Of a DNA stretch of 64,000 nt, positions 35,351 to 56,960 are shown one piece after another. The stretch is taken from the NCBI GenBank assembly GCA_031409955.1, contig JANNYF010000012.1, positions 25,927-89,926 on the forward strand, read 5' to 3'. Origin of the DNA: Blastocatellia bacterium (GTDB lineage Bacteria; Acidobacteriota; Blastocatellia; RBC074). Under the pieces are notes generated by a model that searched no databases, had not been told where the DNA came from, and saw only the letters and a list, made by a program, of their open reading frames with translations. The position numbers and the translations under genes are program-made. Position 1 is the first letter of the stretch, and each line of letters opens with the position of its first letter.

Positions 35351-38300
35351 TTAGAACTTCAGCCGCAGCGCGAATTGAATCAGACGCGGATTGCTGCTGA
35401 AGACCAGATCGGGTTGATTGAATTGCGCCCGCCCGACGGTGTTGACGTTGCCCACCGCCTGCGTGGCAATCGGGACGACGCTGTTCGGCGTGCCGGACAC
35501 GTATTGCGGATGATTCAAGCCATTGATGAAATCTGCGCGGAATTGCAGCTTCTTCGTTTCCGTCACGGCAAAGTCTTTCGAGAGCGAAAAATCAATGTTG
35601 TTGATGGCAGGCAATGCCAGCGTGTTGCGCCCCGCCGTCGCACGCGCACCCAAGCCTGCTTGAATGTATTGCGCGTTCGGATTGGTGGCTAAGTAGCCCA
35701 CTGTTTTGCCTGCCGTATTCGTCAGCGCCGTCACCAAACTGGAAGTGTTTTTCACGCCATTGGTGTTGATGATCGAACGATCTCCGGCGGCGTCGCCATT
35801 CAGGTTGGCGTCAACGCCGCTCAGCACCGTGACGTGTTCGCCGGATTCATAACTGAACGTTCCCGCGAAGCTGAATCCACCGAACAACGACCGCGCCAGG
35901 CGATGACTGCTCTTGGCAAAAAACGGAAGGTCGTAGATGCCAGAGACGGCGAGACGATGACGATGATCGAGAATTGAATTGGCCTTCTCCGCCCGCATGT
36001 TTTGGAAGTCTTGCGCCCGGCGCGGGGCCAAGACTGTGCTGAAAACCTCGGCGGTCGAATCGTCAATGTTGTGGCTCCAGGTGTAGGCCGCATTCGCCAA
36101 AAATCCGCCTGTGAATCGTCGCGTCAAGGACGAAGAAAATGCGTGATAGGTCGAGCTGCCATTCGAGACAAACGCCACCACGTTCGCGCCATTGAAACCC
36201 GCATTGGCATAAGCCGGCACAAAGCGCGAGCGCGGGTTGATCGTGTCTTGCAACGTGACTGTCAACCTGTCTAAATCTGCTTGCGCAGGTCTCGACAAGT
36301 ACGTGGGAAGGAAGATCGTGTCGGTAGTTTTGGGCTGCACGTTCAGGCGATTCTGCGTGGGCAAGTGAACGCCGCGTGTGCCGAGATAGCGCGTTTCCAG
36401 CGACCAGTTGGTTAAGAACTGGCGCTGAATGCTCAGGCTGTATGACATCGCGTAGGGAACTTGTTGATTGTCTACCCACGCGCTGGTCGCGGCGCGTGCG
36501 GCTGCCGCTGAAGTTGCGGTGGCTGGCACGACGTTGTGAATCCCGCCATTCGCCAGGAAGTTGTTGATGTCAGGCGTCGCCGGGATGTTGACTGTGACCT
36601 GCGCTTGCGGCGGACTCGACAAAATATAGAGGTTGTCTACGATCACATCGTAGGCCATCGAGAAGCCCGCGCGAATCGAACTCTTGCCGCCGGAACCAAA
36701 CAAGAAACCCAGTGGGCCGGAGTCATAATTCGGCGCATATACCAAGCCGATACGCGGCCCGAAATTCTTCTTCTGCGCGGTGGGTGCGCCAAATTCAATC
36801 AGTCCCGGCACGTTGGAAATGGCGTTCAGTTTTTGCAAGCTCGCGCCGAACGGCACTTGCTGATAGACGTAGTTCACGCCCGCATTCAGCGTCAGGTTCG
36901 GACGCATCCGCCATTCGTCTTGCCCAAAACCGAAGAACAGAATTTGGTCGCCGTAATACTTCGACGCGCCCACGTTGCGCTCGGCTAAAAAGTCAGGATT
37001 CAAATCGCGCAGGAAGCGATCTGTCGTGTTGTATTGATAATCGCCGCGCTCGCGTTGCACGAAGGTTTGCGGCGAAATGCTCTTGCGCACATCCGCGCCA
37101 AACTTCAACGAGTGATTGCCCGCGAGATAGGAAATGTTGTTGATGAGTTGATAGTTGTTTTCGGTGTTGTACTGCGGCCCGTTTGGATCGGGGCCAATAT
37201 CAATGCCCAAATCTTTCAGCCCGACATTCGGAAATGAGTCAAACCCAGCGATGGGGAATTTGGTATCGGGGATCGAAACGTCATTTACAAAGCGACGATA
37301 GGACAGGCGCATTTCATACGTCAGCTTCGGCGTGAAGGTGTGCAGGAAGGTGTAGGAAAACAAACGACCATCGGTCGGGTTCAGGAAGAAGAACGCAGGC
37401 AGCGTGGCATTGTTGTCAATCGCGCGCAGACGGTTGTACGTGAAGCGACCGCGATGCTGTGTTTTCTCGCTTTGCGTGTAATCCAGATTCAGCACGAAGT
37501 TGCGCTGATTCGTCCAATTCGGCGCGTCGAACGAAATATTGCCGACCGGAATGTTGACGCCATTCACGGCAATCGTTCCGGCATCATTGGTCGGCGCGGT
37601 TGGCACATATTGTTTGAAGAGCGCGAGGTTGGGGGCAGAGAGTCCCGCGATGCGATCCAGCGCCGCGAAGCCTGCGGCAGTGGGCGAAGTCAGACCCGCC
37701 GGAGCGGCTGCGTTGCCGATGCCCAAACCTTCGTAGCTGACAAAAAAGAACAGGCGATCTTTGCCGTTGATGATCGGGCTGCCGCCTGTGCCGAAGCGCG
37801 GCAGATGCAGCGGGCCGCCGATGTTGCCGCCGTAGCGAGCGAAATCGTAACGCGGCATGAACGTCGTGCCGGGCGCATTCTGTTCGCGCACGACGCCCGC
37901 GTTTTTCTGCGTGGTATCAAGCGCGTTTAGGTAACGATTGCGGAAGAAGCTGTACAACGTGCCGTGATATTCATTGCCACCGCTTTTGGATGCGACGATG
38001 AATTGGCCGCCCGTCGAACGCGCAAACTCGGCAGCGAATTGATTGGTCAAAATTGAAAACTCGGAAACTGTTTCCGGCGACACATAAACGGCGGGGCCGG
38101 AGATGTCTTTGCGGTTGTTATCAATGCCATCCACGACAAAGTTATTGTTGCGCGGACGTTGCCCACCGACCGAACCGCCCGTGCCTAAACCGAGGCCGCC
38201 GCTGCCCGTGACGTTCGGCGCTAACAAGGCCAGGTTGTAAATACCGGAACTTGCGGAGTTCGCCGTGGTAATAGACGTTTGAGGAAGTTCGACGACTTGC

Positions 38301-38734
38301 CGGGAATTGAACCCTTTCGACAAATTCGTGGTGGTGGTTTGGATTAGCTCTGCACCTTCCGCCGAGATTTCGACGGTTTCTGTTTGAATGCCGACTTGTA
38401 ACGCGACGGGCACGTCGGTCGTTTGATTCAAGCCCACGCGGACATCGCTCAAGGTCAGCTTTTTGAAATTGGCTGCCTCGATGGTGATCTGGTAATCGCC
38501 CGCCAACAAGTTATTGAAGCGGAACTCGCCATCGCCGCTAGATTCGGCGGTCACGGTATGGCTGGTCTTGCGATCCGTGATGCTGATTTTGGCGCCGGGG
38601 ACAATCGCGCCGCTGGGGTCTTTCACGATGCCGCGCACATTGCCGGTGGTTTGCTGTGCCAGCACCGGGCAGAGAAGAGAGATGAGTAAGAGAAGTAAGG
38701 TTGTGACTTGCGTCATTGGCGATAGTTTTTTCAC
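35351..38734 (-). CDS. TonB-dependent receptor-like OM protein with CarboxypepD_reg N-terminal domain
   Basis: RBS aaggag. Signal peptide. GIVKDPSGAIVPGAKISITDRKTSHTVTAESSGDGEFRFNNLLAGDYQITIEAANFK. About 1127 aa. Confidence 0.85.
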   Translation of the reverse strand: MKKLSPMTQVTTLLLLLISLLCPVLAQQTTGNVRGIVKDPSGAIVPGAKISITDRKTSHTVTAESSGDGEFRFNNLLAGDYQITIEAANFKKLTLSDVRVGLNQTTDVPVALQVGIQTETVEISAEGAELIQTTTTNLSKGFNSRQVVELPQTSITTANSASSGIYNLALLAPNVTGSGGLGLGTGGSVGGQRPRNNNFVVDGIDNNRKDISGPAVYVSPETVSEFSILTNQFAAEFARSTGGQFIVASKSGGNEYHGTLYSFFRNRYLNALDTTQKNAGVVREQNAPGTTFMPRYDFARYGGNIGGPLHLPRFGTGGSPIINGKDRLFFFVSYEGLGIGNAAAPAGLTSPTAAGFAALDRIAGLSAPNLALFKQYVPTAPTNDAGTIAVNGVNIPVGNISFDAPNWTNQRNFVLNLDYTQSEKTQHRGRFTYNRLRAIDNNATLPAFFFLNPTDGRLFSYTFLHTFTPKLTYEMRLSYRRFVNDVSIPDTKFPIAGFDSFPNVGLKDLGIDIGPDPNGPQYNTENNYQLINNISYLAGNHSLKFGADVRKSISPQTFVQRERGDYQYNTTDRFLRDLNPDFLAERNVGASKYYGDQILFFGFGQDEWRMRPNLTLNAGVNYVYQQVPFGASLQKLNAISNVPGLIEFGAPTAQKKNFGPRIGLVYAPNYDSGPLGFLFGSGGKSSIRAGFSMAYDVIVDNLYILSSPPQAQVTVNIPATPDINNFLANGGIHNVVPATATSAAAARAATSAWVDNQQVPYAMSYSLSIQRQFLTNWSLETRYLGTRGVHLPTQNRLNVQPKTTDTIFLPTYLSRPAQADLDRLTVTLQDTINPRSRFVPAYANAGFNGANVVAFVSNGSSTYHAFSSSLTRRFTGGFLANAAYTWSHNIDDSTAEVFSTVLAPRRAQDFQNMRAEKANSILDHRHRLAVSGIYDLPFFAKSSHRLARSLFGGFSFAGTFSYESGEHVTVLSGVDANLNGDAAGDRSIINTNGVKNTSSLVTALTNTAGKTVGYLATNPNAQYIQAGLGARATAGRNTLALPAINNIDFSLSKDFAVTETKKLQFRADFINGLNHPQYVSGTPNSVVPIATQAVGNVNTVGRAQFNQPDLVFSSNPRLIQFALRLKF

Positions 38735-39056: not shown

Positions 39057-39198
39057 ATCTGAACTTTTTTGTTAATAGATACGTTCTCGAAAACGTCCAT
39101 ACAACTGAACTCACACCGCTGTGAACTAATTCATAAGATCGAATAACCCCTCACGTCTACGGCGCAGAGACGTGACCAATGTTCTAAATCCAAATCTC

Positions 39199-41478
39199 AT
39201 GCAGAATCCAAACCGACATATTTATTCTTTTGGTCAGTACTCCGTGGATGTTGCCGAGCGCCAATTATTGCGGGCTGGAGAGAGCGTTGCGCTGCCGCCG
39301 AAAGTCTTCGATACGCTGTTGGTGTTGGTGGAAAACTGCGGTCGCATTCTGGAAAAAGATGTGCTGATGAACAAAATCTGGCCCGACAGCTTTGTCGAAG
39401 AAAGCAGCCTGGCACAGTACATTTTTCAATTGCGAAAAGCCCTCGGCGATGACGCGTCAGAGCATCGCTTCATCGAAACAATCCCGAAACGCGGCTATCG
39501 TTTCATCGCGCCCGTGCAAGCAGAACTTGGCACGCCCACCCCACTTTTACACGCGCACGGCAGCGCGGTTGTGACGGCGGAATATTTACCGCAGACGACA
39601 CCGCTTGTTGCTATCGCTATGCCAACGGTTCCCGTGCGGACGAATTTCAGGTCGCCGCTCAAATCTTTCACCGCTGCCCACAGCCCCAGTTCGTCACTGG
39701 TTCCGTTCCAGTCCAAATGGCGGCTCATCAATACTGGTTGGGCGGCGATGATGAGTGTGACAGTGTTGGCTGCGCTGATCGTGGGCGGAATTTGGCTGAC
39801 CAGAAATTACGCCGATGCCCGAATTACACCAACTCCCGTGCAAATTACCAAGCTGACTTCGACCGGGCGCGCCATTGCTCCCGCGATTTCGCCGGATGGC
39901 AAATATGTGATCTACATTGCCGATGATCTGGGCAAACAGAGCCTGTGGATTCGGCAAACCGAAACGCTCAGCAATGTCCAAATCCTGGCCCCCGCCGATG
40001 TGTCGTTTCAGGGGCTGACGTTTTCGCCCGATGGCAATTATTTGTATTACGTCATTTACAAAATGCCCAAGCATATTGGCGTTTTGTATCGCGTGCCGAT
40101 TTTGGGTGGCACGTCACAAAAAGTCCTGGAAGACGTTGATACCGCCATCACCTTCGCGCCCGATGGCCAACGGTTCGCTTTCGTCCGGCAATATCCGGCG
40201 ACGTTGGAAACAGCGGTCGTCATCGCCCAAACCGATGGCAGTAACGAACAAAAATTGGCGACGCGCAAATCGCCCAAAATGTTTGCGATTGATGGGTTGT
40301 CGTGGGCGCCGAATGGAGAGCTGATTGCCGTGGCCAGCAGCAACACCGGAGCCACCGGCCCCAGCATGCAATTGGTCGGCATTCGCGTCAAAGATGGCGG
40401 CGAAGAATGTCTCAGTGCCAAAGCCTGGGGCAATCTGAAACAGGTCGTGTGGCGCAACGATGGGCGCGGCTTGATGGTGATTGGTTGGCAACAGTCCGCC
40501 GCCGTGATGGCCAATCAAATTTGGTACATCCCGTATCCCGACGGCGAACCCCGCCGCGTCACGAATGACCTCATCAATTACAGTGGCTTGAGCCTGGCGG
40601 CAGACACCGGCAAAGTCGTGACTACGCAATCCACCAAGGTTTCGCGGATGTGGCTGGTGCCGGAAAATGATGTCGCACAGGCGACGCAAGCGGCTTCGGT
40701 GGGCATTGATAATTTCAGCGAGAAGTTGGGGCTGAATTGGTTGTCGAATGGGAAGCTGATTTATGGTTCGCGCGCCAGCGGCAATGCCGATCTCTGGTTG
40801 ATGGATGCCGATGGGAACAACCAAAAACAATTGACGGTAGACACCACTTTGGAAGGCCAGCCCACTGTGACTGCCGACGGACGCTACATTGCGTTCTTAT
40901 CGAATCGCGCCGGGACGTACAACATCTGGCGGATGAATGCCGATGGCTCGCACCTACAACGATTGACGAACGGTCCGTGGGAAAATACGCCGAGCTTTTC
41001 GCCCGATGGAAAATGGATCGTCTACAACGGCGTGTTTCAGGAAAAGCCCGTGCTATGGAAGATTCCGGCAGAGGGCGGAACCCCGGTGCGCTTGACGGGC
41101 GATGTTTCGATCCGTCCGGCAGTGTCGCCCGACGGCAAAATGGTGGCGCATTTGCACCTGGATGCGCAATCCCAGCGGATGAAATTGGCGGTGGTTCCGA
41201 TGGAAGGTGCATCGCAAGTCAAAATGTTCGCTACCAGCATTCCCGAACCCCATATCGTGAATTGGAGTCCTGACGGTCGGATGGTCACGTATGTGGACAC
41301 GCACGACGGCGTTTCCAACATTTGGGGACAGCCGTTGGATGGCTCGCCCTCCAAACCGCTGACACATTTCAAGAGCGATAATATTTTCCGCTTTGCCTGG
41401 TCACCGGATGGCAAAAAGCTGGCGTGCGAACGTGGCTTTTATATCAACGATGTCGTGCTGATTAGCAACTTCTCCTGA
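39199..41478 (+). CDS. Winged-helix (OmpR/PhoB-type trans_reg_C) DNA-binding domain fused via a TM segment to a TolB-like (PD40/WD40-like) beta-propeller
   Basis: YSFGQYSVDVAERQLLRAGESVALPPKVFDTLLVLVEN...IWPDSFVEESSLAQYIFQLRKALGD...ETIPKRGYRFIAP, then repeated SPDGK/FSPDG propeller blades. ATG at 39199 is preferred over GTG at 39172. Confidence 0.8.
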   Translation: MQNPNRHIYSFGQYSVDVAERQLLRAGESVALPPKVFDTLLVLVENCGRILEKDVLMNKIWPDSFVEESSLAQYIFQLRKALGDDASEHRFIETIPKRGYRFIAPVQAELGTPTPLLHAHGSAVVTAEYLPQTTPLVAIAMPTVPVRTNFRSPLKSFTAAHSPSSSLVPFQSKWRLINTGWAAMMSVTVLAALIVGGIWLTRNYADARITPTPVQITKLTSTGRAIAPAISPDGKYVIYIADDLGKQSLWIRQTETLSNVQILAPADVSFQGLTFSPDGNYLYYVIYKMPKHIGVLYRVPILGGTSQKVLEDVDTAITFAPDGQRFAFVRQYPATLETAVVIAQTDGSNEQKLATRKSPKMFAIDGLSWAPNGELIAVASSNTGATGPSMQLVGIRVKDGGEECLSAKAWGNLKQVVWRNDGRGLMVIGWQQSAAVMANQIWYIPYPDGEPRRVTNDLINYSGLSLAADTGKVVTTQSTKVSRMWLVPENDVAQATQAASVGIDNFSEKLGLNWLSNGKLIYGSRASGNADLWLMDADGNNQKQLTVDTTLEGQPTVTADGRYIAFLSNRAGTYNIWRMNADGSHLQRLTNGPWENTPSFSPDGKWIVYNGVFQEKPVLWKIPAEGGTPVRLTGDVSIRPAVSPDGKMVAHLHLDAQSQRMKLAVVPMEGASQVKMFATSIPEPHIVNWSPDGRMVTYVDTHDGVSNIWGQPLDGSPSKPLTHFKSDNIFRFAWSPDGKKLACERGFYINDVVLISNFS

Positions 41479-41490: not shown

Positions 41491-41579
41491 GGGATGGGGG
41501 ATGGGAGACATGTTTTTCTCCCATCCCCCATCTCTCATCCCCAATCCCCAATCCCCAATCCCCAATCCCCAATCTCCAA
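41491..41579. repeat. Family E: hairpin (gggatgggggatgggaga / tctcccatcccccatctc) plus (CCCCAAT)x5 tandem repeat
   Basis: Seen directly, immediately after the regulator stop codon. Confidence 0.5.
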
Positions 41580-41748
41580 TGCAGACTTAATGCAGTACGC
41601 TTGCTCCTAACCCCTCTTCAGAACTTCATAATCATTCCTTAACGCAAACTACAGGACATTAACGCCGCGCTTTTTATACCTTGCCGCCAGTCAAGTTGGA
41701 GGACCCGAACAATTGCCCCATCCTGGGCACTTTTCCTGGAGGTACGTT

Positions 41749-42606
41749 ATGAAAAGAGCTGCTGAAATTTTGTTGGTAGTTGGTCTGTTGCTGAGTCCGC
41801 TGCTGGTTTTACGGGCGGAAGTGAATGCTCAAAGCGATCCACTCACGTATCGCGGGGGAATGCGCCATAGCACGGGGAAACACCGGTTGAAGGAAAAACA
41901 ACTGAAACAAGTCTTGGAAGGATTGGCGGAGAAAACAGGATTTCAAGAAATCGGATTTGATGGAGATGGCTTTTTGACTTTGGGGGATCGAAGGAACTTC
42001 GTCGCCGGATCAGCCACCGCCAGAGATTTGTTAATGGATGCGGTGGATTCCCCTTCCCAATTGCATTTAGAAAATCATTCGTATTCCGCGCAAGTCGTGT
42101 TTGCCAATTTGGGCAAGAGTACGCTCTTTTACAATATGCGGACGAAAGCGCAAATCGAACATCAGCCGATGCGCCTTGATTTCTCGGATTTCGGCAAGCT
42201 GATCGGGCCGAAAGAAGTGCTGGCTTCGTTCGATCTGGGGATGACGATTTTGCATGAATTGGTGCATGGCGTGCGCCAGCTCCACGATTCAGTGAACGAA
42301 TGGGAAGAGGTCGGCGACTGCGAGCGATATGTGAACAGGATGCGCAAAGAACTAAGCTTGCCCGAACGCCAACAATATATTGCCCGCAGCCACACCGTTC
42401 TTTCGCCGCTGGGCTGGACAGTGAAGATGGCGGAACTGCAATTTGCCCGCACCGATTTTCGCAACGGCAAACTGAAAACCGACGAATACAAATTAAGCTG
42501 GGACGTCAATCGGGTGGGCGTGGGCGATCAAGAGAGCGTCAATGTCACGCTGAAAGCCATCACGTCGAAGAAACCCGAACAGAAATCTACAGCGGCTGTT
42601 CATTGA
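41749..42606 (+). CDS. Secreted hypothetical protein with HExxH zinc-metallopeptidase-like motif
   Basis: RBS ggaggt. Signal peptide MKRAAEILLVVGLLLSPLLVLRA. ILHELVHGV motif. No further family recognised. Confidence 0.55.
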   Translation: MKRAAEILLVVGLLLSPLLVLRAEVNAQSDPLTYRGGMRHSTGKHRLKEKQLKQVLEGLAEKTGFQEIGFDGDGFLTLGDRRNFVAGSATARDLLMDAVDSPSQLHLENHSYSAQVVFANLGKSTLFYNMRTKAQIEHQPMRLDFSDFGKLIGPKEVLASFDLGMTILHELVHGVRQLHDSVNEWEEVGDCERYVNRMRKELSLPERQQYIARSHTVLSPLGWTVKMAELQFARTDFRNGKLKTDEYKLSWDVNRVGVGDQESVNVTLKAITSKKPEQKSTAAVH

Positions 42607-42694
42607 CTGGTGATGGAGATCGTGCAGCGTGTTATTACCAAAGTTGAAAACTGCGGCTTGGAAAACTGCGGCTACAATTCGAGTTCCTAACCTG

Positions 42695-44794
42695 TTACTG
42701 CTCGCGTCTGAACGTATAGCGCAGCAAGACAATATGATTTAGTGAAGAATGGCCGGAGGATTTGGAGGCGATATATTCAACCAGCAGGTTGGGGCGCAAC
42801 CGCCAGCCAATCCCGACATCGGTGAAATTGTCGATAAACCGTTCTTGCGTGCGACCATTCGGAACGAATTTGCCATAGCTATTGAGCAGCCGGCCAAACC
42901 GATCTGGAAACAGGTTCTCATCCGTCGTGCGTCGTTGCCAACTCGTCAGCGATGAGACGCTGATGAACATCTGCCGCCAGACATCCGTTTGCGCCGCCAT
43001 GTGCAAAGACGTGAAGCGCAGCCGCTGTTGTTTGTCTTCGATCTGATTGCCTGTTGCATCTTCAAACAACCGATCATGAATGTGGATTGATCCGATTGCG
43101 ACATCCACCCCAAACACCGTGCGCGGGCGTAGCGCGTAGCCGAGACCGCCGCTGATGGCAGTGCGGTGAATGTGTTCACGTTCGTTGGCATTCACGATGG
43201 AAAAGCGGCGGAGTTGTTCGGTCAAGCCGACGTGCAACCACGAAGCATCTACGCCATAAAACAATTTGCGCGTGACCAGTCCGCGCAATCGCAGTCCCAC
43301 TTCTTTTGTCTGCGCGCTAAACCGCACGGCATCCGGTGGCAGCGCCGAACCATTGAACCGGCGGGCTTGGTCTCGATCTTCGGCGCGTGTCACGCCGTGG
43401 CGGTAGAAAACGCCAAGCTTCTGGCTTGTGCCAAATTCGCGCGTGAGGCCGAAACGAAGGCGAGAGCGTTCGACCCAGGCGCGCGCTGTTAACTCTTCAA
43501 TAGATTTTGCTCCCAGCACATTCGTCAACGTCGTCAGACTTTGCAGGTTACTCACGCCGCTGGTGTGATCTACGCTAATGCCGACGCTGGTGCGACCGCT
43601 TTTGCCAAACTGCCGCGCAGCTAAGAGCGACGCCGAAAAGTTCGTTACGTCGGTACTCGCCGCGCCCGTGCTGACGCCCGGAATGCCGGTGGGATAGGCG
43701 GGCGTGACTGCGCCGGTAATCGGCGCGCTCAAAAATGTGCCGAGCGTGCTGTGCGCAGCGCCAACGCTCCCGCCCAATACCGTGCGCTTTTCTGCATTCG
43801 TGCGAAGCGGGGTGAAGAAGGTGGTTTGAAACAGCAACCCGCTGTCATTCGGAGCCGTGAGGTCAGAGCCAAAGACCAGCGAATTCTCGGCCTTCATATT
43901 GGCTTTGCTCCACGAGGGCAGGAGCGAAAAGCGCCCTTCCCTCTGACGAAACTCGGTGGCATACGCGGGGTTTTCGAGGCTGTCAAAATGCGAATCGGGA
44001 AACGCCAGGAAGCGCAAGAAGGGCGGGCTTTCGCCCGGTTCAACGACGCTGTCAATGTAGCGTTCGTAATCGCCCGCCAGATTGCGCCGCACATCGTTGG
44101 GCGTGTTCGCACTGCTCACGCCGTTCGCTCCGGCAGCATTGCTGTTGCGATGGCTCTCATCGCGGCTGCCACTGGGGCTGCGATCTCCGATTTCGCTGCC
44201 CGGCCCCGTCACGAAAAAGCGAATATCACCAGTGAGGGGAACGATCAAACCGCGTCCCGGTTGCACCATTGCTCGTTGCGCATTCGCCACGCTCACGACT
44301 TCGACTAAACCTTCATACACGATCACCTCCGTCTCACTCGTTGCCTCGACCGCAACGCTGAATTCTGTTCCCCGCACAAGAATAGAAGCCGAAGGACTAT
44401 TGACGCGATACGGATTCGGTTTGTTGCCGTAATGGTTGATTTTGACGCGGACGCGTCCCACCAGAACTTGCAATAATTCCCGCAGCGTGGGGGCATTCAG
44501 ATAATCCCGAATCACGATGCGGGAGTTCGGCTGCACCGTCACCACGCTGCCGTCGCTCAACTGAATCACGAGGCGCCCGTTGCCGGTCGTGATTTCGTCA
44601 CCCGGTTGCAGCACATCGCCTTTCGCTAAAGAAAAACTGCGTTGCTGGCTGAAGCGCAGCGCGCCGCCGCTCGTGCTGGCAATGCGCGCTTCGACCGCTT
44701 GTGCCTGCACGGAGAGGCAACCGAAGGGCGGAGCGGCGCAGCAAAGCACCGCCATCAGCATTCGTCTCAGCCAGCGCAGATCAGCACTCGTCAT
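42695..44794 (-). CDS. FecR-domain protein with C-terminal outer-membrane beta-barrel-like region
   Basis: Signal peptide. FecR-like fold ([37 protein letters not shown]...VRGTEFSV). Long beta-strand-rich C-terminus ending in an aromatic residue. ATGA overlap with the upstream response-regulator gene. Confidence 0.65.
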
Positions 44795-46229
44795 TCCTCG
44801 TCCTCCCCATTCTCAACGAAGTCAAAGCCCTCGCCTTCCGGTTCCACCATTTGATTGAGATTATGCCGCGCGATCAGGCGCTGCACAGTGCGCCGATTCA
44901 AGCCCAGCAACGTCGCCGCGTGCTGGCGATTGCCTGCGGTGTGCGTCAACGCGGCTACCAAATACCGTCGTTGTAATTCTTCCATCGTGGGCCAATCCGC
45001 AGCCAGTTGCCGCAATGCCTCCGCCGGGGCTGCTGTCTGAACCGGACTGATATGAGACGGCAAGCACAGCGGCGTAATCATCCCATCTGTAGTCAGCGCC
45101 GCCGCTCGTGTCAGCGCGTTTTCCAATTCCCGCACGTTGCCGGGGAATGACCATTGACACAGCAAATCCAGTGCATCGCGGGAAATATGCAAAGGTTTGG
45201 TTTCGCGGCTCAGGCGGTGCAGAAAAAATTGCACCAGCAGTTCGACATCGCCCGTGCGTTCGCGTAGCGGTGGCAGGTGGATCGTCAAAACGCTTAGGCG
45301 GTAATACAGATCAGCACGGAACGATTTCTGTTCCGCCAACTCGCGCATATCCTGATTGCTTGCGCCGATCACGCGCACATTTACGCGGCGTGTCTGCGTC
45401 GCGCCGACGCGTCGCACTTCGCCCGATTGCAGCACGCGTAACAAACTCGCCTGAAAAGACGAACTGGTCGAGGCGAGTTCATCCAGAAACAATGTCCCAC
45501 CGTCTGCCGCTTCAAATAGGCCGATGCGATCCGTGTTCGCGCCTGTGAACGCGCCGCGCATGTGGCCGAATAATTCTGCTTCCAACAGCGTGTCGGTTAA
45601 GCCTGAACAATTGACGGCGATGAAAGGCTTTTGTTTACGTGGGCTGAAATCGTGGATGGCGCGGGCGGTGACTTCTTTGCCCGTGCCGGATTCGCCGGTA
45701 ATTAAACGGTCGCATCCGTGCGCGCGGCCTGTGCTACTAATTTGTAGACCTGCACCATTGCCGCGCTACGCCCCACAAAACCACTGCGCGCGGAATCGGG
45801 CTGTGCATCTGGCGACGGTTGTGCATCCACTTCTTGCTGCGCATTTATGTAGCGGTGCAATAATGTGGTCAAGGCTTCGACTTCAAAGGGTTTGGCAATG
45901 AAATCGGTGGCACCTTCGCCCACCGATTGGACGGCCAAATCTACGGAGCCTTGCGCGGTCATCAAAATAACGGGGATGTCGCTGGAGAGTTGGCGCAGTT
46001 CTTGCAACAACGTTAGCCCATCGCCATCCGGCATATAGACATCCGTGATGATGCCATCGAACTTGATCGTTTGTGCGATTGCTAAGGCTTCGCGTCCGCT
46101 CCGTGCGCAAGTGATCTGAAACCCGCTCAGGGTGAGGCTGGTTTCCAGCATCAGCCGAATGAGCCGATCATCGTCTACGACCAGAATGTGCAGTTGTTTC
46201 TTGGACATGGTTATGAGTATCTGATTCAT
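44791..46229 (-). pseudogene. Sigma-54-dependent response regulator (NtrC family: REC + AAA+ sigma54-activator + Fis-HTH) interrupted by a single-nucleotide frameshift
   Basis: REC domain (ILVVDDD...DGIITDVYMPDGDG...) runs into ...AARTDATV then a TAA at 45702-45704. The -1 frame continues [35 protein letters not shown]...[15 protein letters not shown]...HTH in frame with ORF 44791-45585. One missing T in a T-run (GTTTAATT vs GTTTTAATT) would restore the frame. Confidence 0.7.
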
Positions 46230-46344
46230 TATAGCGGGCGAAGATGAACGCTGAATTAACCCGATTCACCGCAACTTTTGAGATCAAGAGCGGAGCGGCA
46301 TTCTCGGTCAATCGAGAGCTTCCATCTCACACAACCCCTCACGT

Positions 46345-48789
46345 TCACCCAGCATTTTGTTGCTCGTTGTTGAGTGGGAGCCGGAGCGTAAACGTTGATC
46401 CGACCCCGGTCACACTTTCGATAATGACGCGCCCGCCGTGTAATTCGGCGACTTCGCGCACCAATGCCAAACCCCGTCCTGTCCCCGGCGTATCAGCATC
46501 TTCAATGCGTGGGACGCGGAAGAATTTTTCAAAGACCCGCGTGCGATAATTCGGCGGAATGCCGTAGCCCTGATCTCTGACCGAAAGCAAAATCGTCTCG
46601 CCTTCGATTTTCGCCGTGACGGAAATTTCAGTTTTTTCCGGGCTATACTTGATGGCATTCGAGGCCAGATTCGTCACGGCGCGTGCGAGCAAATCTGCGT
46701 CTGCCAGCAGCGGCGGAAGATTCGGTGCAAAGTCGCGTGTCATCGTGATGCGTTTGTGCTGTGCGATAGGGTCAAGCAACAAAAGCGTTTTTTCGATCAG
46801 GGTTTCCAATCGCACGTAGTCCATTTTGAGCGCGCGTGCACCCGATTCCAGCCGCATCAAATCCAGATACTCATCAATCATGCGGCGCAATCGTTGCGTG
46901 GCTTCCTGAATCGCTTCGTGCATTTCGCGGCGTTTTTCTGGCGCGGGATCGAACTTCATTAGCACTTCGCTCATGCCTTGAATCGCGGTCAGCGGCGTTT
47001 TCATTTCGTGCGTCACCAACAGCATTACATCGGTTTGCATTTGCTGTAACTCACGCTGTTTCGTGATGTCTGACAGCGAGACAACAATGCCTGTTGGGGC
47101 TTCGTCCGGCTGGCGAATCGCGGCCATTCGTAAGAGGAAATGACGCGGTTGCGGCGTTGCAATCGTGAATTCACGCTCAATGCTCGCCCGCTCTTCAAAC
47201 AAGCGCCAAAGCGTCCCTTTTTGAAGCTGCATCACTTGTAATTCATCCGGTTGTAGTTGCCCTGTTTCCGCGACCGTCAAGCGCGCGAATAAATTGCTCC
47301 CTGCTAAATAGTGCTCCGACGTATTGAAAATGTTAGCGGCGCGCGGATTCGCGTAGACGATGATTCCGTTCGCATCCGTCATCAGCAAGCCGTCTTCTAC
47401 CGATTGGAGCGCCTGATCTACAAATTGTGTGCGCGCCATCAATCGCGTTTGCAACTCAGCCAAGGCGCGGGATTTGTCTTCGAGACGGCGCGGCAATTGT
47501 AACCGCGTCGAGGAATCAGTTTTGAGTTTGAAAGGGGAAAGTCGTGCGCTTTGTTGAATCAGCTCGCCGATGCGTTGATCCAACTGCGTGCTGGCGGACA
47601 ATGTGCGGTGGAGTAACGTCAAAGGCGTCGCAATGACCAATGAAATCAGGGCTGGAACCAGTGGCAGCACAATCAACCAGCGCGTGAAAACAAAATAGGA
47701 TGCCAATAAAATCAGCGCGGCGAGGAAGATCACCACGCCAAGTTGTTTGAGGATTTCCCAACGCCCCTGCGCCAGTCGTAACCCGCCGACCACCGCCGCC
47801 GCAATTAGCGCCGCAAACAGCGCGGCAAACCCATCGGAGGAAGGCTGATAAAATCGTTGTTGCAAAATCGTCGTGACTGCATTCGCTAACACTTCAACGC
47901 CGGGCATCAGCGTTCCATGCTGATTGCCGTCATCTGTCGCAAAGCGCACAAAAGGTGAAGCAACGCGATCTCCCATTGCCGCCGCTGTTGCGCCAATCAA
48001 TACATACTTGCCCTGCAATTTTTCCGGCGTAACGTTTCCGTCAATGACATCTGCGATGCTGTAGGTATGTGCGGCGAAAGTACCAGCCGGGCCGCGATAA
48101 TCAATCGTCATGCGGGCGGCGCGGATGCGTTCGGTCATTTGTTCAGATGAAGCAATAGCAAGGGTCGGCGCTTCAAACGTGACCGGAATTGTGCGGGAGC
48201 CAATGTTGACAGACTCCGGCAGTTCGCGGACTTCATTGCGCGGCGTGCCTTGACCAACGCGCACCATCTCAACCGCCAGCGCCCAAAACGATTGCCCTTC
48301 GTCATCCGTTGCGCGCAAGCCCAACCCGCGCGCGACGCCATCGTAATCGGTCAAGACATTGCCGTGTCCCACTCCGGCGGCAGCTTGCTCGATAGCAAGT
48401 AAGGGACGCGCCCATTCCGCACCTTGCCCTGCTGTCTCGACCAACTGCGCCGTCACCACCACCTTGCCTGCGCGTTTGATGGCAGCAGCTAACGCGGCAT
48501 CATCGGCTTCGTTGGTGGGATCACTGTAGAGGACACTTAGTGTGACGGCTTTTGGTTGCGTGGCGGCAATGCGATCCAATGCCTGCGCCATGATCTGACG
48601 CGACCAGGGGAAGCGTCCGAAGCGTTTGATGCTGGGTTCATCAATCGCCACCAGCACAACTTCATCCGGGGCTGACAATTGGCCCCGCGCCCGCACCAGA
48701 CTATCCTGTGCCAATAAATTCAGGCCGGGCAACCGCCACGACCCAGCATTGCCAGGATCGTGGCCAGCACGATGATGACAAGTCCCCAA
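46345..48789 (-). CDS. CHASE2-domain sensor histidine kinase (CHASE2, TM segments, PAS, HisKA, HATPase_c); N-terminal TM helix encoded in a different frame (48720-48827)
   Basis: CHASE2 region (LNLLAQDSLVRARGQ...VVLVAIDE), TM cluster, PAS-like region, HEMKTPLTAI H-box, and GTGRGLALVREVAELHGGRVIIESVTGVGSTFTL G-boxes. An upstream ATG at 48827 encodes MSNSPLHLRQPRFWGLVIIVLATILAMLG (the expected leader TM helix) but stops after 35 codons, out of frame with the main ORF. Confidence 0.75.
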   Translation of the reverse strand: MGTCHHRAGHDPGNAGSWRLPGLNLLAQDSLVRARGQLSAPDEVVLVAIDEPSIKRFGRFPWSRQIMAQALDRIAATQPKAVTLSVLYSDPTNEADDAALAAAIKRAGKVVVTAQLVETAGQGAEWARPLLAIEQAAAGVGHGNVLTDYDGVARGLGLRATDDEGQSFWALAVEMVRVGQGTPRNEVRELPESVNIGSRTIPVTFEAPTLAIASSEQMTERIRAARMTIDYRGPAGTFAAHTYSIADVIDGNVTPEKLQGKYVLIGATAAAMGDRVASPFVRFATDDGNQHGTLMPGVEVLANAVTTILQQRFYQPSSDGFAALFAALIAAAVVGGLRLAQGRWEILKQLGVVIFLAALILLASYFVFTRWLIVLPLVPALISLVIATPLTLLHRTLSASTQLDQRIGELIQQSARLSPFKLKTDSSTRLQLPRRLEDKSRALAELQTRLMARTQFVDQALQSVEDGLLMTDANGIIVYANPRAANIFNTSEHYLAGSNLFARLTVAETGQLQPDELQVMQLQKGTLWRLFEERASIEREFTIATPQPRHFLLRMAAIRQPDEAPTGIVVSLSDITKQRELQQMQTDVMLLVTHEMKTPLTAIQGMSEVLMKFDPAPEKRREMHEAIQEATQRLRRMIDEYLDLMRLESGARALKMDYVRLETLIEKTLLLLDPIAQHKRITMTRDFAPNLPPLLADADLLARAVTNLASNAIKYSPEKTEISVTAKIEGETILLSVRDQGYGIPPNYRTRVFEKFFRVPRIEDADTPGTGRGLALVREVAELHGGRVIIESVTGVGSTFTLRLPLNNEQQNAG

Positions 48790-48973
48790 AATCTGGGCTG
48801 GCGAAGATGTAACGGAGAATTACTCATTTACAAATCAATTTTGTCAGGGCAAAACGGCAATTGTATCCAAGTGTCATCGAATAACAATCACGGGTGAGGC
48901 ACTTCCCCTGATGGTGCCTCGCCCTTTTCGTAGAAGCCGATTGCGGGGGAGCCACAATCGCTTCTACAAACTG

Positions 48974-51028
48974 TTACTGCAACGAGATCGTGATCGTGTT
49001 CCCTTGTTTGATAGTTCCTTCACCGTCACGCAATTTGACTTTGACTTCGGCAGCAGGATTTGCCAGCGCCGCATCCGGGATGAGGACATTGATTTGATCG
49101 AGTCCGGCAAACCCCGGAGCCACGCCGGCATAATGCACTTCGGCTTTGACGCCGCCAATCGTGATTTCCACGCGCTCGGCGACACCATTGGCAGCATTGC
49201 CGTCTTCGTCTTTCGCGCCGCGCAAGCCCGTGCCGAACAACACCAGAAATAGTTTGTCGCCATTGCGCCGTTCAATCGTTGCGGGTACGAGTTTGTTTTG
49301 CGTGGTATCCAGGCGTGCGACCGATTCACTGCTTTGCTCACCGTTGGCTTTGACGCGGGTCACATAGCCTGCCGGAGCGCCTTGCCCATCAGAATTGGCG
49401 GCAAAGAAGGCCAGCTTGGATTCCGTCACCAGAATCGTGCCTTGCGAGACGACTACGCCCCCGCGCATGATCGCCACATTCGCCAAGCCGAGCGGTGTGC
49501 TGGCAGGGATTTGATAGTTGATCTGATGGGGCGAGACGAAGAACAAACGTGCCTGTTTGCCATCCACCAGCACTGTCACATCGCTGAGCGTTTGCGGCAA
49601 AGGTAATGTACTTGCTGCCGCGACGCCTGCCGCTAGGTTAGAGCCAAACGCCGACACGATGGATTCCGGCGCACTTTCTTCTGCATAGTCTGCTGCCTCG
49701 ACCGTCGCGACCGGGTTATAGCTCATAAACGCACCGCCACCTGCGCCCTGTTTGACTTCAATTTCTCTGGCATTCAGCGAGCCATCTGCTTGTGCCAGTC
49801 CTTCGGCTTCGACATACGCGCCGACTGCGACTGTGCCATATTTGCGTTTGATGCGCGTGTAGAGTGTGACATTGACCTTGCGTCCGGCTACCGTCCATTG
49901 CCCAATAAAATTGGGGTCATTGGGCAAGCTGTCAATTTTTCCGTAGACCTTGTTGTTGCTGCCGGGGTTGCCGGAACTCGTGCCACTCTTGATTTCGATT
50001 TTGGTGGCATTGATGGAATTGTCGGCTTGCACCGGCCCTTTGACTTCCACCAAAGAACCTACGATCAGACCACGCTCAGGATGCTCGATGTAAGTTCCAG
50101 TTGTGACATTGACTTTGCGTCCGCTCACCGTCCATTGCCCAATGTTGCCAGCCGTTCCGGGTAAGCTTTCAACTGTGCCATAAAATTCGTTGTAGCTCCC
50201 TCTGCTGTCCGAAGAACTGCCACCGCCTGATGAGCCTGCGGCGTTTTTGGTTTCGATTTTGGTCGCATCAATTGAGCCATCGGCGCGCAACGTCCCGTAA
50301 ATTTCGACGTAGACGCCCACGGCCACCGCAGCATATTGCTGCACAATTACGGTAGCGGCTGACACATTCACCTGACGACCACCAATGCTCCACACCCCAA
50401 TGCGTCCGGCAGTGCTGGGTAAAGTCTCGATATAGCCTTTGAAGAGATCATTGCTGCTGCTGCCGCCACTGCTGCCTCCTTGTTTGGTTTCGACCTTGAA
50501 GGCGTCAATGGAACCGTCCGTACGGACATTGCCTTCCACCTCGACGTAAGCCCCCACTGCGAGTGATCCGTGTTCTAACTTGATGTAAGTCGTCGGCGAG
50601 ACATGCACGATGCGCCGGTTGACCGTCCAATCGCCGATGCGATTCGCCGTGTTGGGCAGCGTCTCGACATTGCCGTAGAGTTTGAAATACGTGCCGCCGC
50701 CGGTGCCGGATTTGGTTTCGATTTCTTTGGCATTGACAGAACCATCTGCTTGTAGCCAGCCTTCAATTTCTACGGTTGCACCGAGCGCGATCAGCCCTTT
50801 TTCCTGTTTGACTTTGGTGCTGGCGAGCACATGCACCGTGCGTCCATTCACGACCCAATCGCCGCTCCAGCCGGATGCGCCCGGTAGGCTCTGAATCGTG
50901 CCGTACAGTTTGTAATCACCATCATCATCGGCGCGTGCTGCCTGAAAGGGGATGAGGCAAACCATCATCGCCAGCCCCAGTAAGATCATTTTCGTCCATT
51001 GTTTCCGGCCATTTGTTACAGGTTGCAT
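48974..51028 (-). CDS. Secreted protein with five tandem DUF5666-like repeats and a TIGR03437-type (Solibacter-type) C-terminal domain
   Basis: RBS gaggag. Five units of roughly 85 aa with pattern YG.I.SLP......G.W.V.GR.V.V...T.I......GA.VE.EG....DGS..A..IE.K separated by Gly/Ser linkers. C-terminus ...EVHYAGVAPGFAGLDQINVLIPDA... matches the TIGR03437 signature. Confidence 0.75.
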   Translation of the reverse strand: MQPVTNGRKQWTKMILLGLAMMVCLIPFQAARADDDGDYKLYGTIQSLPGASGWSGDWVVNGRTVHVLASTKVKQEKGLIALGATVEIEGWLQADGSVNAKEIETKSGTGGGTYFKLYGNVETLPNTANRIGDWTVNRRIVHVSPTTYIKLEHGSLAVGAYVEVEGNVRTDGSIDAFKVETKQGGSSGGSSSNDLFKGYIETLPSTAGRIGVWSIGGRQVNVSAATVIVQQYAAVAVGVYVEIYGTLRADGSIDATKIETKNAAGSSGGGSSSDSRGSYNEFYGTVESLPGTAGNIGQWTVSGRKVNVTTGTYIEHPERGLIVGSLVEVKGPVQADNSINATKIEIKSGTSSGNPGSNNKVYGKIDSLPNDPNFIGQWTVAGRKVNVTLYTRIKRKYGTVAVGAYVEAEGLAQADGSLNAREIEVKQGAGGGAFMSYNPVATVEAADYAEESAPESIVSAFGSNLAAGVAAASTLPLPQTLSDVTVLVDGKQARLFFVSPHQINYQIPASTPLGLANVAIMRGGVVVSQGTILVTESKLAFFAANSDGQGAPAGYVTRVKANGEQSSESVARLDTTQNKLVPATIERRNGDKLFLVLFGTGLRGAKDEDGNAANGVAERVEITIGGVKAEVHYAGVAPGFAGLDQINVLIPDAALANPAAEVKVKLRDGEGTIKQGNTITISLQ

Positions 51029-51411
51029 ATCATTAACTCCTCGTTTATGAAAAATAATTTCAGGGGATTGAGAGGAAGCCTGTCGGTCTCGGCAGTCTCC
51101 TCTCGCAGTGCCGCTGCATCTGTGAACGGCACTACTCTCTTGGGCAAACCTGATGCCAGAGGTGATGATTCGCTAAGCTCTTGATTTATAAGGTGGTGCC
51201 GTGACCAAAGGAGTGACAGGCCAGTGAGAACTGCGACTCTGTGCCGCGTCTTGGCGGAGAGTGGTGCGGCAATTTGCCGCCGTTCCTTCTACTGGCGATT
51301 CAAGGCAAATTTTACGAAAAATTGAGATGGGGTTCCTGTCAATCTAACCTGCCGAATGGTATAGTCTGCCTCTCTCAAACGACTAACAACCAACCAGCAG
51401 GAGCAACCCAA

Positions 51412-54018
51412 ATGCGGCACGTCAATCAACTCATCGCAGTTCTTCTCGTCTTCTCGTTAACCCTTCCAATTACCGCCCAAAAGCCCGCGCGCGCCATCGA
51501 AACGCCCGGCCAAAAAGCGTCTGGGATGCTGTTGCCCAACGGCTGGACGCTGACGCCGGAAGGCAAACAAATCCCGATCAGCGATTTGCCGATGAATATG
51601 GAATTGAGCGCGGATGGGCGCTATTTGCTGGTCACGACGAATGGTAACGGTGTGCAGGAAGTGGACGTCATTGATGTGCAGACGCAGCAACTGTTGCAGC
51701 AAATCGAAGTCAAAAAATCCTGGCTCGGTCTGGCGTTCGCACCCGATGGCAAACGCTTTTTTGTGTCGGGTGGAGATGACAACGAAGTGCTGATCTTCAA
51801 CTTTGCGGCAGGCAAGGCAACGGCGGCGGGCAAGATCAATCTGGGCAGCAACGAATTTCACGCGATGGACAATCGCCAACGTGCCGCTGCTCGCAATGCA
51901 GGCAAGGGCGAATTCGCGTTTCCCGCTGGCATCGCCGCGACACCGGATGGCAAACGGTTGTTTGTCGCGGAAAACCTCTCGCACAAAGTTGCCGTCGTTG
52001 ATCTGGCAACCAATCAAGTCCTTACGAAAATTGCGGTCGGCGAATACCCTTACGATGTCACGATTGCGCGCGATGGCAAGCGTGTCTATGTCAGCAATTG
52101 GGGCGCACGCAGTGTGGCGGTGATTGATCCGAACACCAATCAAGTCCTCGGCAACATTGCCACGGGCGATCATCCGAATGATTTGGAATTGACGCGCAAT
52201 GGCAAACTGCTCTACGTCGCCAACGCGAACAGCAATTCAGTTTCTGTGTTGGACACCGCACAGATGAAAGAGCTGGAAGCGATCAATACCGCGCTGCATC
52301 CGAAATCGCCCATCGGCAGCACGCCCAACGCCGTCGCGCTTTCGCCCGATGAAAAGACGCTCTACATCGCCAACGCCGACAACAACAACGTCACCATCGT
52401 AGATGTCAGTAAGCGCAGCGCGAGCAAGGTCAAAGGCTTCATTCCGACGGGTTGGTATCCGACTTCTGTGCGCGTCAGTAAAACGACCAAACAGATTTTT
52501 GTCGCCAATGGCAAAGGCACAGCATCGGCGGCGAATCCGAAAGGGCCGCAACCGTTACCCGGTCAGTCGCGCGCCGAAAACAAAGAGGTGCAATACATCG
52601 GTAGCTTGCTCAAAGGCACTGTTTCGCTGATTGATCTGCCAGGCAATACGAAGCTCGCGCAACTGACCAAACAAACGTACGCAAATTCGCCGTACACCGA
52701 CGAATTGCTCAAGCAAGCGCGTGCGCCCAAAGCCGGGACAGCGATTCCGACCAATGTTGGCGGGGCTTCGCCGCTCAAACACGTCATTTATATCATCAAG
52801 GAAAATCGCACCTACGATCAAGTTCTCGGCGATATGCCCGAAGGCAATGGTGATCCGAATCTGTGTTTGTTCCCCGAAGAAATCACGCCCAATCAACACG
52901 CGTTGGCGCGCGAATTCGTGTTGCTCGATAACTTTTATGTGGATGCCGAAGTCTCTGCGGACGGACACAATTGGTCAACCGCAGCTTATGCGACGGACTA
53001 CGTTGAGAAAACCTGGCCGACGAATTATTCGGCGCGCGGTCGCACTTACGATTACGAAGGCAGCAAGAAGGTCTCGCGTCCGACCAAAGGTTACATCTGG
53101 GATTATTGCAAAGCGGCAGGCGTGAGTTATCGCAGCTACGGCGAATTCATCGGCGTGCGCGATGTCAAAATCGGTGGCGGCAGCGGCAATGAAGCGCCCA
53201 CGGCGGCGGCGGTGCGCGCGCAGCGTGAAAATTATACCAGTGAAGAAGCCCTGCTCGGTCATTTCAGCCCGAACTATCCGTCGTACAATTTGGGGATTAC
53301 CGACAACACCCGCGTAGATCGCTGGCTGGAAGAGTTTCGGGCCTACGAACAGAACAACCAACTGCCGCAATTTCAAATCGTGCGCCTGGGCAACAACCAC
53401 ACCGAAGGCACTACGCCCGGCAAGAAAACCCCGCGCGCCCACGTCGCCGACAACGACCTCGCCGTCGGGCGTTTGGTTGAGGCCGTGAGTGCCAGTAAAT
53501 ACTGGGCGACGACCGCCATCTTCATCATCGAAGACGATGCCCAGAACGGCCCCGATCACGTAGACGCGCACCGCTCGCCCGCCTTTGTCATCAGCCCATA
53601 CACGAAACGCAAATTCGTAGATTCGACGATGTATACCGGTTCCAGCATGTTGCGCACAATGGAGTTGGTTTTAGGTTTGCCGCCGATGAGTCAATACGAT
53701 GCCGCCGCGATTCCCATGTTCAATTCGTTCACGAACACGGCTGATTTGACGGCCTACAAAAAGCGCGACGCGCGTGTTGACCTCAATGAAATCAATGCTC
53801 CGAACGCGCCCGGCGCACAGAAATCTGCGAGCTGGGATTTCAGCAAAGAAGACACGCTCCCCGACATTGAATTCAACGAAGTGATTTGGAAATCAGTGAA
53901 AGGCGCAAACTCTGCGATGCCCGCGCCCGTGCGCAGCGCGTTTGTGCGCGTGATTGATGATGATGACGAAGAAGAGGAAGAAGCACGACGCGAGAAAAAA
54001 GCGCGCCGCCGCAAGTAA
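51412..54018 (+). CDS. Secreted fusion: YVTN/lactonase-like 7-bladed beta-propeller plus phosphoesterase family domain (phospholipase C / acid phosphatase AcpA family)
   Basis: RBS caggagc. Signal peptide. Repeated ...DGKRLFV..N....V.VID... propeller blades. C-terminal HVIYIIKENRTYDQVLGD phosphoesterase signature. Acidic/basic tail (EEEEEARREKKARRRK). Confidence 0.8.
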   Translation: MRHVNQLIAVLLVFSLTLPITAQKPARAIETPGQKASGMLLPNGWTLTPEGKQIPISDLPMNMELSADGRYLLVTTNGNGVQEVDVIDVQTQQLLQQIEVKKSWLGLAFAPDGKRFFVSGGDDNEVLIFNFAAGKATAAGKINLGSNEFHAMDNRQRAAARNAGKGEFAFPAGIAATPDGKRLFVAENLSHKVAVVDLATNQVLTKIAVGEYPYDVTIARDGKRVYVSNWGARSVAVIDPNTNQVLGNIATGDHPNDLELTRNGKLLYVANANSNSVSVLDTAQMKELEAINTALHPKSPIGSTPNAVALSPDEKTLYIANADNNNVTIVDVSKRSASKVKGFIPTGWYPTSVRVSKTTKQIFVANGKGTASAANPKGPQPLPGQSRAENKEVQYIGSLLKGTVSLIDLPGNTKLAQLTKQTYANSPYTDELLKQARAPKAGTAIPTNVGGASPLKHVIYIIKENRTYDQVLGDMPEGNGDPNLCLFPEEITPNQHALAREFVLLDNFYVDAEVSADGHNWSTAAYATDYVEKTWPTNYSARGRTYDYEGSKKVSRPTKGYIWDYCKAAGVSYRSYGEFIGVRDVKIGGGSGNEAPTAAAVRAQRENYTSEEALLGHFSPNYPSYNLGITDNTRVDRWLEEFRAYEQNNQLPQFQIVRLGNNHTEGTTPGKKTPRAHVADNDLAVGRLVEAVSASKYWATTAIFIIEDDAQNGPDHVDAHRSPAFVISPYTKRKFVDSTMYTGSSMLRTMELVLGLPPMSQYDAAAIPMFNSFTNTADLTAYKKRDARVDLNEINAPNAPGAQKSASWDFSKEDTLPDIEFNEVIWKSVKGANSAMPAPVRSAFVRVIDDDDEEEEEARREKKARRRK

Positions 54019-56878: not shown

Positions 56879-56879
56879 A

Positions 56880-56960
56880 CGGTGGTCGGTGGTTGGTGAT
56901 TGGTGGCTGGTCAGTCTTTTACCGACCGCTAACCACCGACCACCGACCACCATTTCAGGA
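56880..56960. repeat. Family C hairpin repeat (GGTCGGTGG units) between ADOP permease genes
   Basis: ggtggtcggtggttggtgattggtggctggtcag ... ctaaccaccgaccaccgaccacc. Same family as 15148-15246. Confidence 0.5.

Follow-up and report, generated by a model that had tools for sequence, protein, structure and literature searches.

That CHASE2 sensors are paired with secreted proteins containing a FecR domain has already been published (PMC5192318, PMC9239204). In the Burkholderia 'BiofilmReg' operon (BCAL1443 region) and in Pseudomonas aeruginosa PA4035/PA4036, the genes encode a response regulator, a LysM-FecR protein, a CHASE2-PAS kinase and a DUF4136 protein (PMC5192318). Here we describe an acidobacterial cassette of this kind in a stretch of 64,000 nt of a Blastocatellia bacterium (assembly GCA_031409955.1, contig JANNYF010000012.1, positions 25,927-89,926 of the forward strand), which is referred to as the window and whose coordinates are used throughout. 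Four consecutive genes on the minus strand at 42695-51028, identified from the list of open reading frames (ORFs) and by Pfam, encode a DUF5666 protein, a CHASE2 kinase, a sigma-54 regulator and a FecR-domain protein. Both signaling genes are disrupted by a one-base deletion, and the double lesion is most likely a genuine, very recent knockout of the pathway, rather than a sequencing error or a programmed frameshift.

The locus resembles BiofilmReg in three respects: a CHASE2-PAS-HisKA-HATPase kinase stands beside its cognate response regulator and a FecR-domain protein that bears a signal peptide; the genes follow each other closely, start codons overlapping stop codons; and the FecR domain is located outside the cytoplasm and acts without an extracytoplasmic function (ECF) sigma factor. 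It differs in that the regulator is an NtrC-type sigma-54 activator and not of the OmpR/CreB type, the FecR protein has no LysM domain but a predicted outer membrane (OM) barrel of about 410 amino acids instead, the accessory gene encodes DUF5666 and not DUF4136, the host belongs to Acidobacteriota, and both signaling genes are frameshifted. In a published system with cyclic AMP output, a CHASE2 sensor is likewise genetically linked to an OM FecR-domain protein, suggesting a shared trans-envelope sensing unit, but that system comprises a cyclase, a phosphodiesterase and a tetratricopeptide repeat protein, whereas in the present locus the signal would pass by phosphorelay to a sigma-54 activator. 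With the NtrB/NtrC-type systems (AtoS/AtoC, ZraS/ZraR) the locus shares the receiver (REC), AAA+ (GAFTGA) and HTH_8 domains and a -24/-12 promoter with an upstream palindrome; unlike in these systems, the sensor is CHASE2-based and the likely target is a DUF5666 surface protein. The regulator scored 425 bits against the NCBIfam model ntrC and 392 bits against AtoC, both under the equivalog cut-offs, and since no such cut-off was reached, it is not considered an ortholog of any named system. In the literature we found no paper joining CHASE2, sigma-54 and Acidobacteria or describing the acidobacterial cassette, and only incidental mentions of DUF5666. The acidobacterial version differs in having a sigma-54 activator as its output, a barrel fused to the FecR domain and DUF5666 as the candidate target, while the CHASE2/FecR pairing itself is known.

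A genome-collection scan with the FecR protein yielded a single relative, L002, a contig of a metagenome-assembled genome with the same four genes, all intact; identity to the window is about 78% for nucleotides and about 81% for proteins; the wider context was obtained by look-ups of protein matches. The genes of the window cassette, their fragments and the two frameshift sites are as follows.

48974..51028, minus strand: intact gene of a secreted protein with DUF5666 repeats, 684 amino acids, Pfam DUF5666 in five stretches (6.9e-57).
46345..48827, minus strand: kinase gene, whole span, with CHASE2, PAS, HisKA and HATPase_c domains (Pfam).
48720..48827, minus strand: 5' fragment of the kinase gene, an ATG-initiated ORF of 35 codons with the start codon, the first transmembrane (TM) helix and an out-of-frame tail up to a TGA stop.
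48741..48744, minus strand: site of the kinase frameshift, where GGG/T (between AMLG and SWRL) lacks one base, from the comparison with L002.
46345..48789, minus strand: kinase body in the -1 frame, 814 amino acids, with CHASE2, three TM helices, PAS, HisKA and HATPase_c (Pfam).
44791..46229, minus strand: regulator gene, whole span, with Response_reg, Sigma54_activat, AAA_lid_14 and HTH_8 domains (Pfam).
45702..46229, minus strand: 5' fragment of the regulator gene, receiver and linker, 175 amino acids, ending at a TAA stop that arises from the deletion.
45704..45706, minus strand: regulator frameshift site, TTT in place of TTTT in the ortholog, from the alignment to L002.
44791..45703, minus strand: remainder of the regulator gene (3' side), read in the -1 frame, with Walker A (GESGTGKE), GAFTGA, AAA lid and HTH_8.
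42695..44794, minus strand: intact gene of the FecR-domain protein, 699 amino acids, with a signal peptide, PF04773 and a predicted 16-strand OM beta-barrel.

The zero frame of the regulator gene reads GCG ACC GTT TAA TTA CC, and the protein ends with ...ARTDATV before the stop, whereas L002 has ACC GTT TTA ATT ACG at the same spot, so the change is from T4 to T3. When one T is added to the TTT at 45704-45706, a regulator of 479 amino acids results that is collinear with the intact orthologs. PF00158 (3.6e-67) matches its residues 152-318 with profile positions 2-168 of 168, unbroken across the junction, and further matches are to PF00072 (1.2e-28), PF25601 and PF02954; the repaired protein has the domain set of the NtrC family, that is, REC, AAA+ with Walker A and GAFTGA, and a Fis-type helix-turn-helix. 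A single continuous frame is absent from the window, where TAA follows ...ATV at 45702-45704 and the remainder is in the -1 frame. The first-pass annotation had placed the split exactly after ...RTDATV, with one T missing and all downstream domains intact in the -1 frame, and the ORFs, the Pfam matches and L002 confirm this. Because the earliest ATG, GTG or TTG in the downstream frame is only at 45585, which is 3' of Walker A, a C-terminal fragment would be devoid of the ATP-binding loop, and the receiver of 175 amino acids would be the only possible product.

The product of the 35-codon ORF of the kinase gene, MSNSPLHLRQPRFWGLVIIVLATILAMLGRGGCPA, lines up with the N-terminal end of the L002 kinase, which is intact and in which a single frame runs across the site (...ATVVALFISWRLPSLNLLAQDSLVRARG / ...LFISWRLPSLNLL). 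The homology of the kinase body to its orthologs begins at about 48741, and the body has strong matches to CHASE2 (PF05226, 1.8e-49), HisKA (PF00512, 6.6e-16) and HATPase_c (PF02518, 1.2e-26). One extra base is needed at 48741-48744, CTG GG(N) TCG TGG, after which the window reads AMLGSWRLPGLNLL (AMLG followed by SWRLPGLNLL); the repaired kinase has 827 amino acids, the same length as the orthologs in the relatives L003 and L006. CHASE2 is followed by TM helices and a HisKA/HATPase_c core as expected of such a kinase, but the N-terminal TM helix is one frame off the CHASE2 body, while in L002 it is in frame; this arrangement, too, had been reported in the first-pass annotation and is borne out by the ORFs. 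A kinase without the first helix would be unable to place the CHASE2 domain of about 300 amino acids outside the cytoplasm. A null effect is expected of either lesion.

In orthologous loci, with which the first-pass annotation had proposed a comparison, both signaling genes are in one frame (L002, L003, L005, L006 and L007), and the kinase-regulator-FecR order, which makes the window locus a module of a CHASE2 sensor and a secreted FecR partner, is the same in all five and in the window. The full order DUF5666-kinase-regulator-FecR recurs in contigs of Blastocatellia and other Acidobacteriota at a regulator identity of about 63-65%. The complete cassette is intact in L003/L004 and L006/L007, and L005 has the three core genes, also intact, without DUF5666. 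Protein sizes in these relatives are 827-831 amino acids for the kinase, 477-483 for the regulator and 692-729 for the FecR protein. The contig L002 (CAZWAK010000109.1) is titled 'uncultured Heliobacteriaceae bacterium', a label that is probably wrong, as the cassette, like every relative of its proteins, belongs to Blastocatellia/Acidobacteriota. At 414-5100 of L003, the DUF5666 gene is tandemly duplicated 5' of the kinase gene.

To date the lesions, we calculated the ratio of non-synonymous to synonymous substitution rates (dN/dS, Nei-Gojobori) between the window and L002, which was 0.12 for the kinase, 0.11 for the regulator, 0.11 for the FecR protein and 0.08 for the DUF5666 protein. Lineage-specific changes, counted at otherwise conserved sites with L003, L005 and L006 as outgroups, numbered 19 in the window and 23 in L002 for the kinase, and 8 and 9 for the regulator; they were similarly balanced in the intact neighbors, with 7 and 6 for the FecR protein and 12 and 9 for the DUF5666 protein. 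Both signaling genes are free of additional stops and shifts, and their catalytic motifs are still legible in the sequence. With no relaxed selection and no secondary lesions, as would be seen in an older pseudogene, the lesions must be very young, or else not real; by this measure of sequence divergence they are very recent relative to the split from L002 (dS about 1). The locus resembles other recent pseudogenes formed by single-base indels in that one base is deleted in a short homopolymer of an otherwise ortholog-like gene with no further decay. It differs from typical ones in that both partner genes of one pathway are hit, while the surrounding 46 kb of ORFs are clean.

Both one-base deletions are quite probably real, since they recur in separate run assemblies, no intact allele is found in the databases and the rest of the window is clean. 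A Logan contig of SRR20217191 (11,514 nt) is 100% identical to window positions 41551-53064, both frameshifts included, and a Logan contig of SRR20217190, which has two single-nucleotide polymorphisms (SNPs) relative to the window, likewise contains both; the disabling lesions, defined against intact orthologs, thus recur in the Logan assemblies. The exact receiver of 175 amino acids is encoded on four contigs, three of 10-20 kb and one in the 50-200 kb class; two of the three shorter contigs were inspected, and both are Logan run assemblies, while for the longest class the cluster records of this protein give a 91-kb NCBI contig, presumably the one from which the window comes. When the repaired proteins were searched against 5.8 billion protein clusters, an intact allele with an identity of at least 90% was found for neither the regulator nor the kinase: the best regulator matches are 82% identical, and the only kinase entry at this level is P0244, a truncated call of 783 amino acids, while the relatives are intact with 816-857 amino acids. 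It is unlikely that both bases are present in the genome and were stripped from every consensus by systematic under-calling of homopolymers. Such an artifact would agree with the position of both sites in short homopolymers, with the apparent origin of all carriers from one project with adjacent run accessions, and with the lack of other decay in the two genes. However, the same sequence was obtained with a different assembler and from separate runs, one of them with a different consensus (the two SNPs). An error process acting on homopolymers is expected to affect the longest runs first, and the remaining long ORFs that were tested (46.5 kb of the window) contain 473 homopolymers (360 of four bases, 93 of five, 19 of six and one of seven), all in frame; among these are 113 runs of 5-7 bases, and the kinase and regulator genes themselves contain seven runs of 5-6 bases, which are also in frame. 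None of these other ORFs is frameshifted, and those scanned have full-length Pfam matches. The probability that two random frameshifts in coding sequence fall one in each partner gene is about 0.003. Several points weigh against a genuine knockout of the proposed pathway. The run accessions are adjacent and one study is probably behind them, the evidence is at the level of assemblies, and a context-specific systematic error, for example in nanopore basecalling, would recur in every run. Two independent lesions without other decay are somewhat unexpected under pure neutrality. The mechanism that would lead from the FecR barrel through CHASE2 and the activator to the DUF5666 promoter, described below, is drawn from gene order and motifs alone, and over the full window, matches to the sigma-54 consensus are no more frequent than by chance (45 found, 45.8 expected).

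Programmed recoding, in which -1 ribosomal frameshifting or transcriptional slippage would restore full-length proteins at a regulated low level, is highly improbable. The same -1 shift is required at both sites, each of which is at a short run, and the zero frame of the regulator ends at TAA straight after the run, as one would expect of recoding; but an X XXY YYZ heptamer is missing from both sites (C GTT TAA; G CTG GGT), transcriptional slippage requires runs much longer than three bases, the z-scores of the downstream RNA folds (-1.55 and +0.61) are unremarkable, and every ortholog examined is in frame, including those of 82% identity. The sites therefore have none of the marks of programmed -1 frameshifting or slippage, namely a heptamer or a long A/T run, a structure and a conserved shift. 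Phase variation was considered and rejected, the tracts of 3-4 bases being far below the length of known contingency repeats. The split genes could also still be useful, the receiver of 175 amino acids serving as a phosphate sink or connector and the kinase restarting at an internal GTG or TTG, so that the locus would be rewired and not dead. Gene callers do predict the receiver, a C-terminal fragment of 256 amino acids and a kinase of 783 amino acids, and the neighboring DUF5666 and FecR genes are intact and under purifying selection. This explanation is nevertheless less credible than a sequencing artifact and, like it, improbable: with the first start codon at 45585 the C-terminal regulator fragment cannot contain Walker A, the CHASE2 domain cannot be exported once the kinase has lost its first membrane helix, and the split arrangement is absent from all relatives examined. 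Among the three options listed in the first-pass annotation, recent inactivation is favored, homopolymer error is unlikely and programmed slippage finds no support.

In the relatives, the OM FecR-domain barrel and the periplasmic CHASE2 domain of the kinase may jointly sense an envelope signal, upon which the kinase would phosphorylate the NtrC-type regulator, and the latter would activate a sigma-54 promoter ahead of the gene of the DUF5666 surface or secreted protein. The DUF5666 gene, which precedes the kinase gene in L002, L003, L006 and L007 too, is the likely sigma-54-dependent target of the regulator; its product also matches the NCBIfam model TIGR03437, a Solibacter C-terminal domain (143 bits). 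Three regulatory features were identified upstream of the DUF5666 and kinase genes.

51143..51158, minus strand: sigma-54-type promoter TGGCAT-CAGGT-TTGCC (-24/-12), TGGCATCAGGTTTGCC, near consensus, about 115 nt 5' of the DUF5666 ATG.
51267..51279, no strand assigned: palindrome CGGCAAATTGCCG, candidate activator site (upstream activating sequence), about 120 nt 5' of the -24 element.
48860..48887, minus strand: sigma-70-like promoter TTGTTA-16-TACAAT, a consensus match just 5' of the kinase ATG, in a region where the count of such matches is not above chance.

Among the sigma-54 matches of the window, we retained just the site 5' of DUF5666 whose position is conserved, a candidate -24/-12 promoter (GG-N10-GC) at the putative target gene. 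Equivalent sites are found 5' of DUF5666 at -115 in L002 and at -108 in L006/L007, before the second DUF5666 copy in L003, and 5' of the kinase gene in L005, which has no DUF5666. The same palindrome CGGCAAATTGCCG occurs at -119 in L002, and GTGACAAATTGTCAC at -88 in the distant L005; in a looser form, the motif has 11 copies in the window. It is plausible that the palindrome is the activator binding site.

In this strain, the relay would be broken at both steps: since the kinase loses its first helix and the regulator is cut between the receiver and Walker A, the pathway is presumably off and DUF5666 should not be inducible. The second hit may have had no selective effect once the first had occurred, or it may have been favored by selection, for instance because it suppressed mis-activation of the regulator after the loss of the kinase/phosphatase. 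The double frameshift by itself is an ordinary example of recent gene loss, and the pairing of the hits in partner genes is non-random and mildly interesting. A more far-reaching possibility, which we regard as rather doubtful, is that the cassette may be an uncharacterised trans-envelope device, in which the FecR barrel is the true ligand receptor of the orphan CHASE2 domain, and that the paired knockouts were selected, either as a suppressor frameshift in the activator after kinase/phosphatase loss or as an adaptive shut-off of the surface protein. In that case, the population would be a natural double mutant of the pathway. For annotation, both genes should be flagged as frameshifted pseudogenes, not as four proteins (175, 256, 783 and 35 amino acids), whereas public gene calls currently list at least three of these four fragments as separate proteins. 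The cassette brings together a CHASE2 sensor, its OM FecR barrel partner, a sigma-54 activator and the candidate promoter of a target gene, and so gives a testable hypothesis for culturable Blastocatellia or Pyrinomonadaceae.

The FecR-domain protein begins with a cleavable-looking signal peptide (residues 1-33, ...VQAQA), which is followed by the FecR domain (PF04773, 3.9e-16, residues 66-165); no second Pfam family matched. At E values of 1e-10 or below, 808 homologs were found. An AlphaFold2 model, built from an alignment of 61 sequences with a mean predicted local distance difference test (pLDDT) score of 76.6, consists of the signal peptide, a beta-rich FecR region of lower confidence and 16 long antiparallel strands at residues 286-696; pLDDT is mostly above 90 over the barrel region (286-699). 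The top Foldseek matches in the PDB are all OM barrels (FepA, BcsC, FadL, AlgE and BAM components) with probabilities of 0.99-1.00, but the TM-scores are just 0.2-0.5, so the similarity is generic. A signal peptide and an even number of long antiparallel strands in the model are consistent with a predicted OM beta-barrel. With regard to the aromatic residue of a C-terminal beta-signal, a conserved Y-T-F stands five residues before the end of the protein. The domain calls of the first-pass annotation hold in Pfam and AlphaFold2 for the CHASE2 kinase, the sigma-54 activator and the fusion of a FecR fold to an OM barrel-like region, and the ATGA overlap by which it linked the third gene is borne out, the ATG of the FecR ORF (42695-44794) overlapping the TGA stop of the regulator gene (44791). 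The other neighbor of the FecR gene is a convergent ORF of 297 amino acids with no family match in Pfam. The two SNPs of the SRR20217190 contig, at window positions 44324 and 44346, are the sole differences over 11.5 kb; both are in the region of the FecR domain, and at least one of them is non-synonymous (E150A).

The likeness of the locus to the FecA-FecR-FecI system is confined to the periplasmic PF04773 fold of FecR anti-sigma factors and to an OM barrel involved in inward signal transfer. Neither a cytoplasmic anti-sigma domain nor a single inner-membrane helix was found in the FecR protein by Pfam and inspection of the N-terminus, and no gene of an ECF sigma factor or a TonB-dependent transducer stands beside the FecR gene, either in the window operon or in the cassettes of the relatives; moreover, barrel and FecR domain are parts of one polypeptide. 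By its predicted domain content, the protein is not a FecR-type anti-sigma factor. The first-pass annotation had proposed that a sigma-54 activator here takes, unusually, the place of the FecI/FecR ECF logic, which was not upheld: the anti-sigma domain and the anchor are absent, the pairing is already published and the cassette is conserved. The idea of a replacement is a misreading of the Pfam name.

Elsewhere in the window, overlapping ORFs at 18142-19470 on the minus strand and further adjacent pairs, including one with a glyoxalase domain, were checked as candidate frameshifts and rejected, being separate genes with their own domains. The three short, slightly overlapping ORFs at 18142-19470 encode a cytochrome c, a 167-amino-acid product without an assigned family and a Fic/DOC protein, which have unrelated domains. 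At 27915-29792 on the minus strand, a protein of 625 amino acids combines a caspase domain (Peptidase_C14, 1.4e-38) with an FGE-sulfatase domain (4.7e-49). Three TonB-like OM proteins of 1127-1258 amino acids with CarboxypepD_reg and OMP_b-brl_4 domains, all full-length profile matches, are encoded at 7443-11219 on the plus strand and at 31531-35178 and 35351-38734 on the minus strand. In the protein encoded at 39172-41478 on the plus strand (768 amino acids), an OmpR-type winged helix (Trans_reg_C) at the N-terminus precedes beta-propeller repeats of the PD40/WD40 type, and the protein resembles a one-component envelope sensor of the ToxR/CadC kind. Three tandem ORFs of 806-844 amino acids occupy 54431-61910 on the plus strand; those at 54431-56878 and 59490-61910 were scanned and proved to be duplicated permeases of the MacB_PCD/FtsX type, and no ATPase gene is visible between the tandem ORFs. 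The G+C content of 62001-64000 is 0.484, compared with 0.52-0.59 elsewhere in the window, and this stretch, which harbors the gene of a minimal nucleotidyltransferase (NTP_transf_2) at 62149-62526 on the minus strand, may be a toxin-antitoxin or mobile island. Finally, the genes cdaA (DAC domain, c-di-AMP synthase) and ybbR form a pair with a 4-nt overlap at 11732-13401 on the plus strand.

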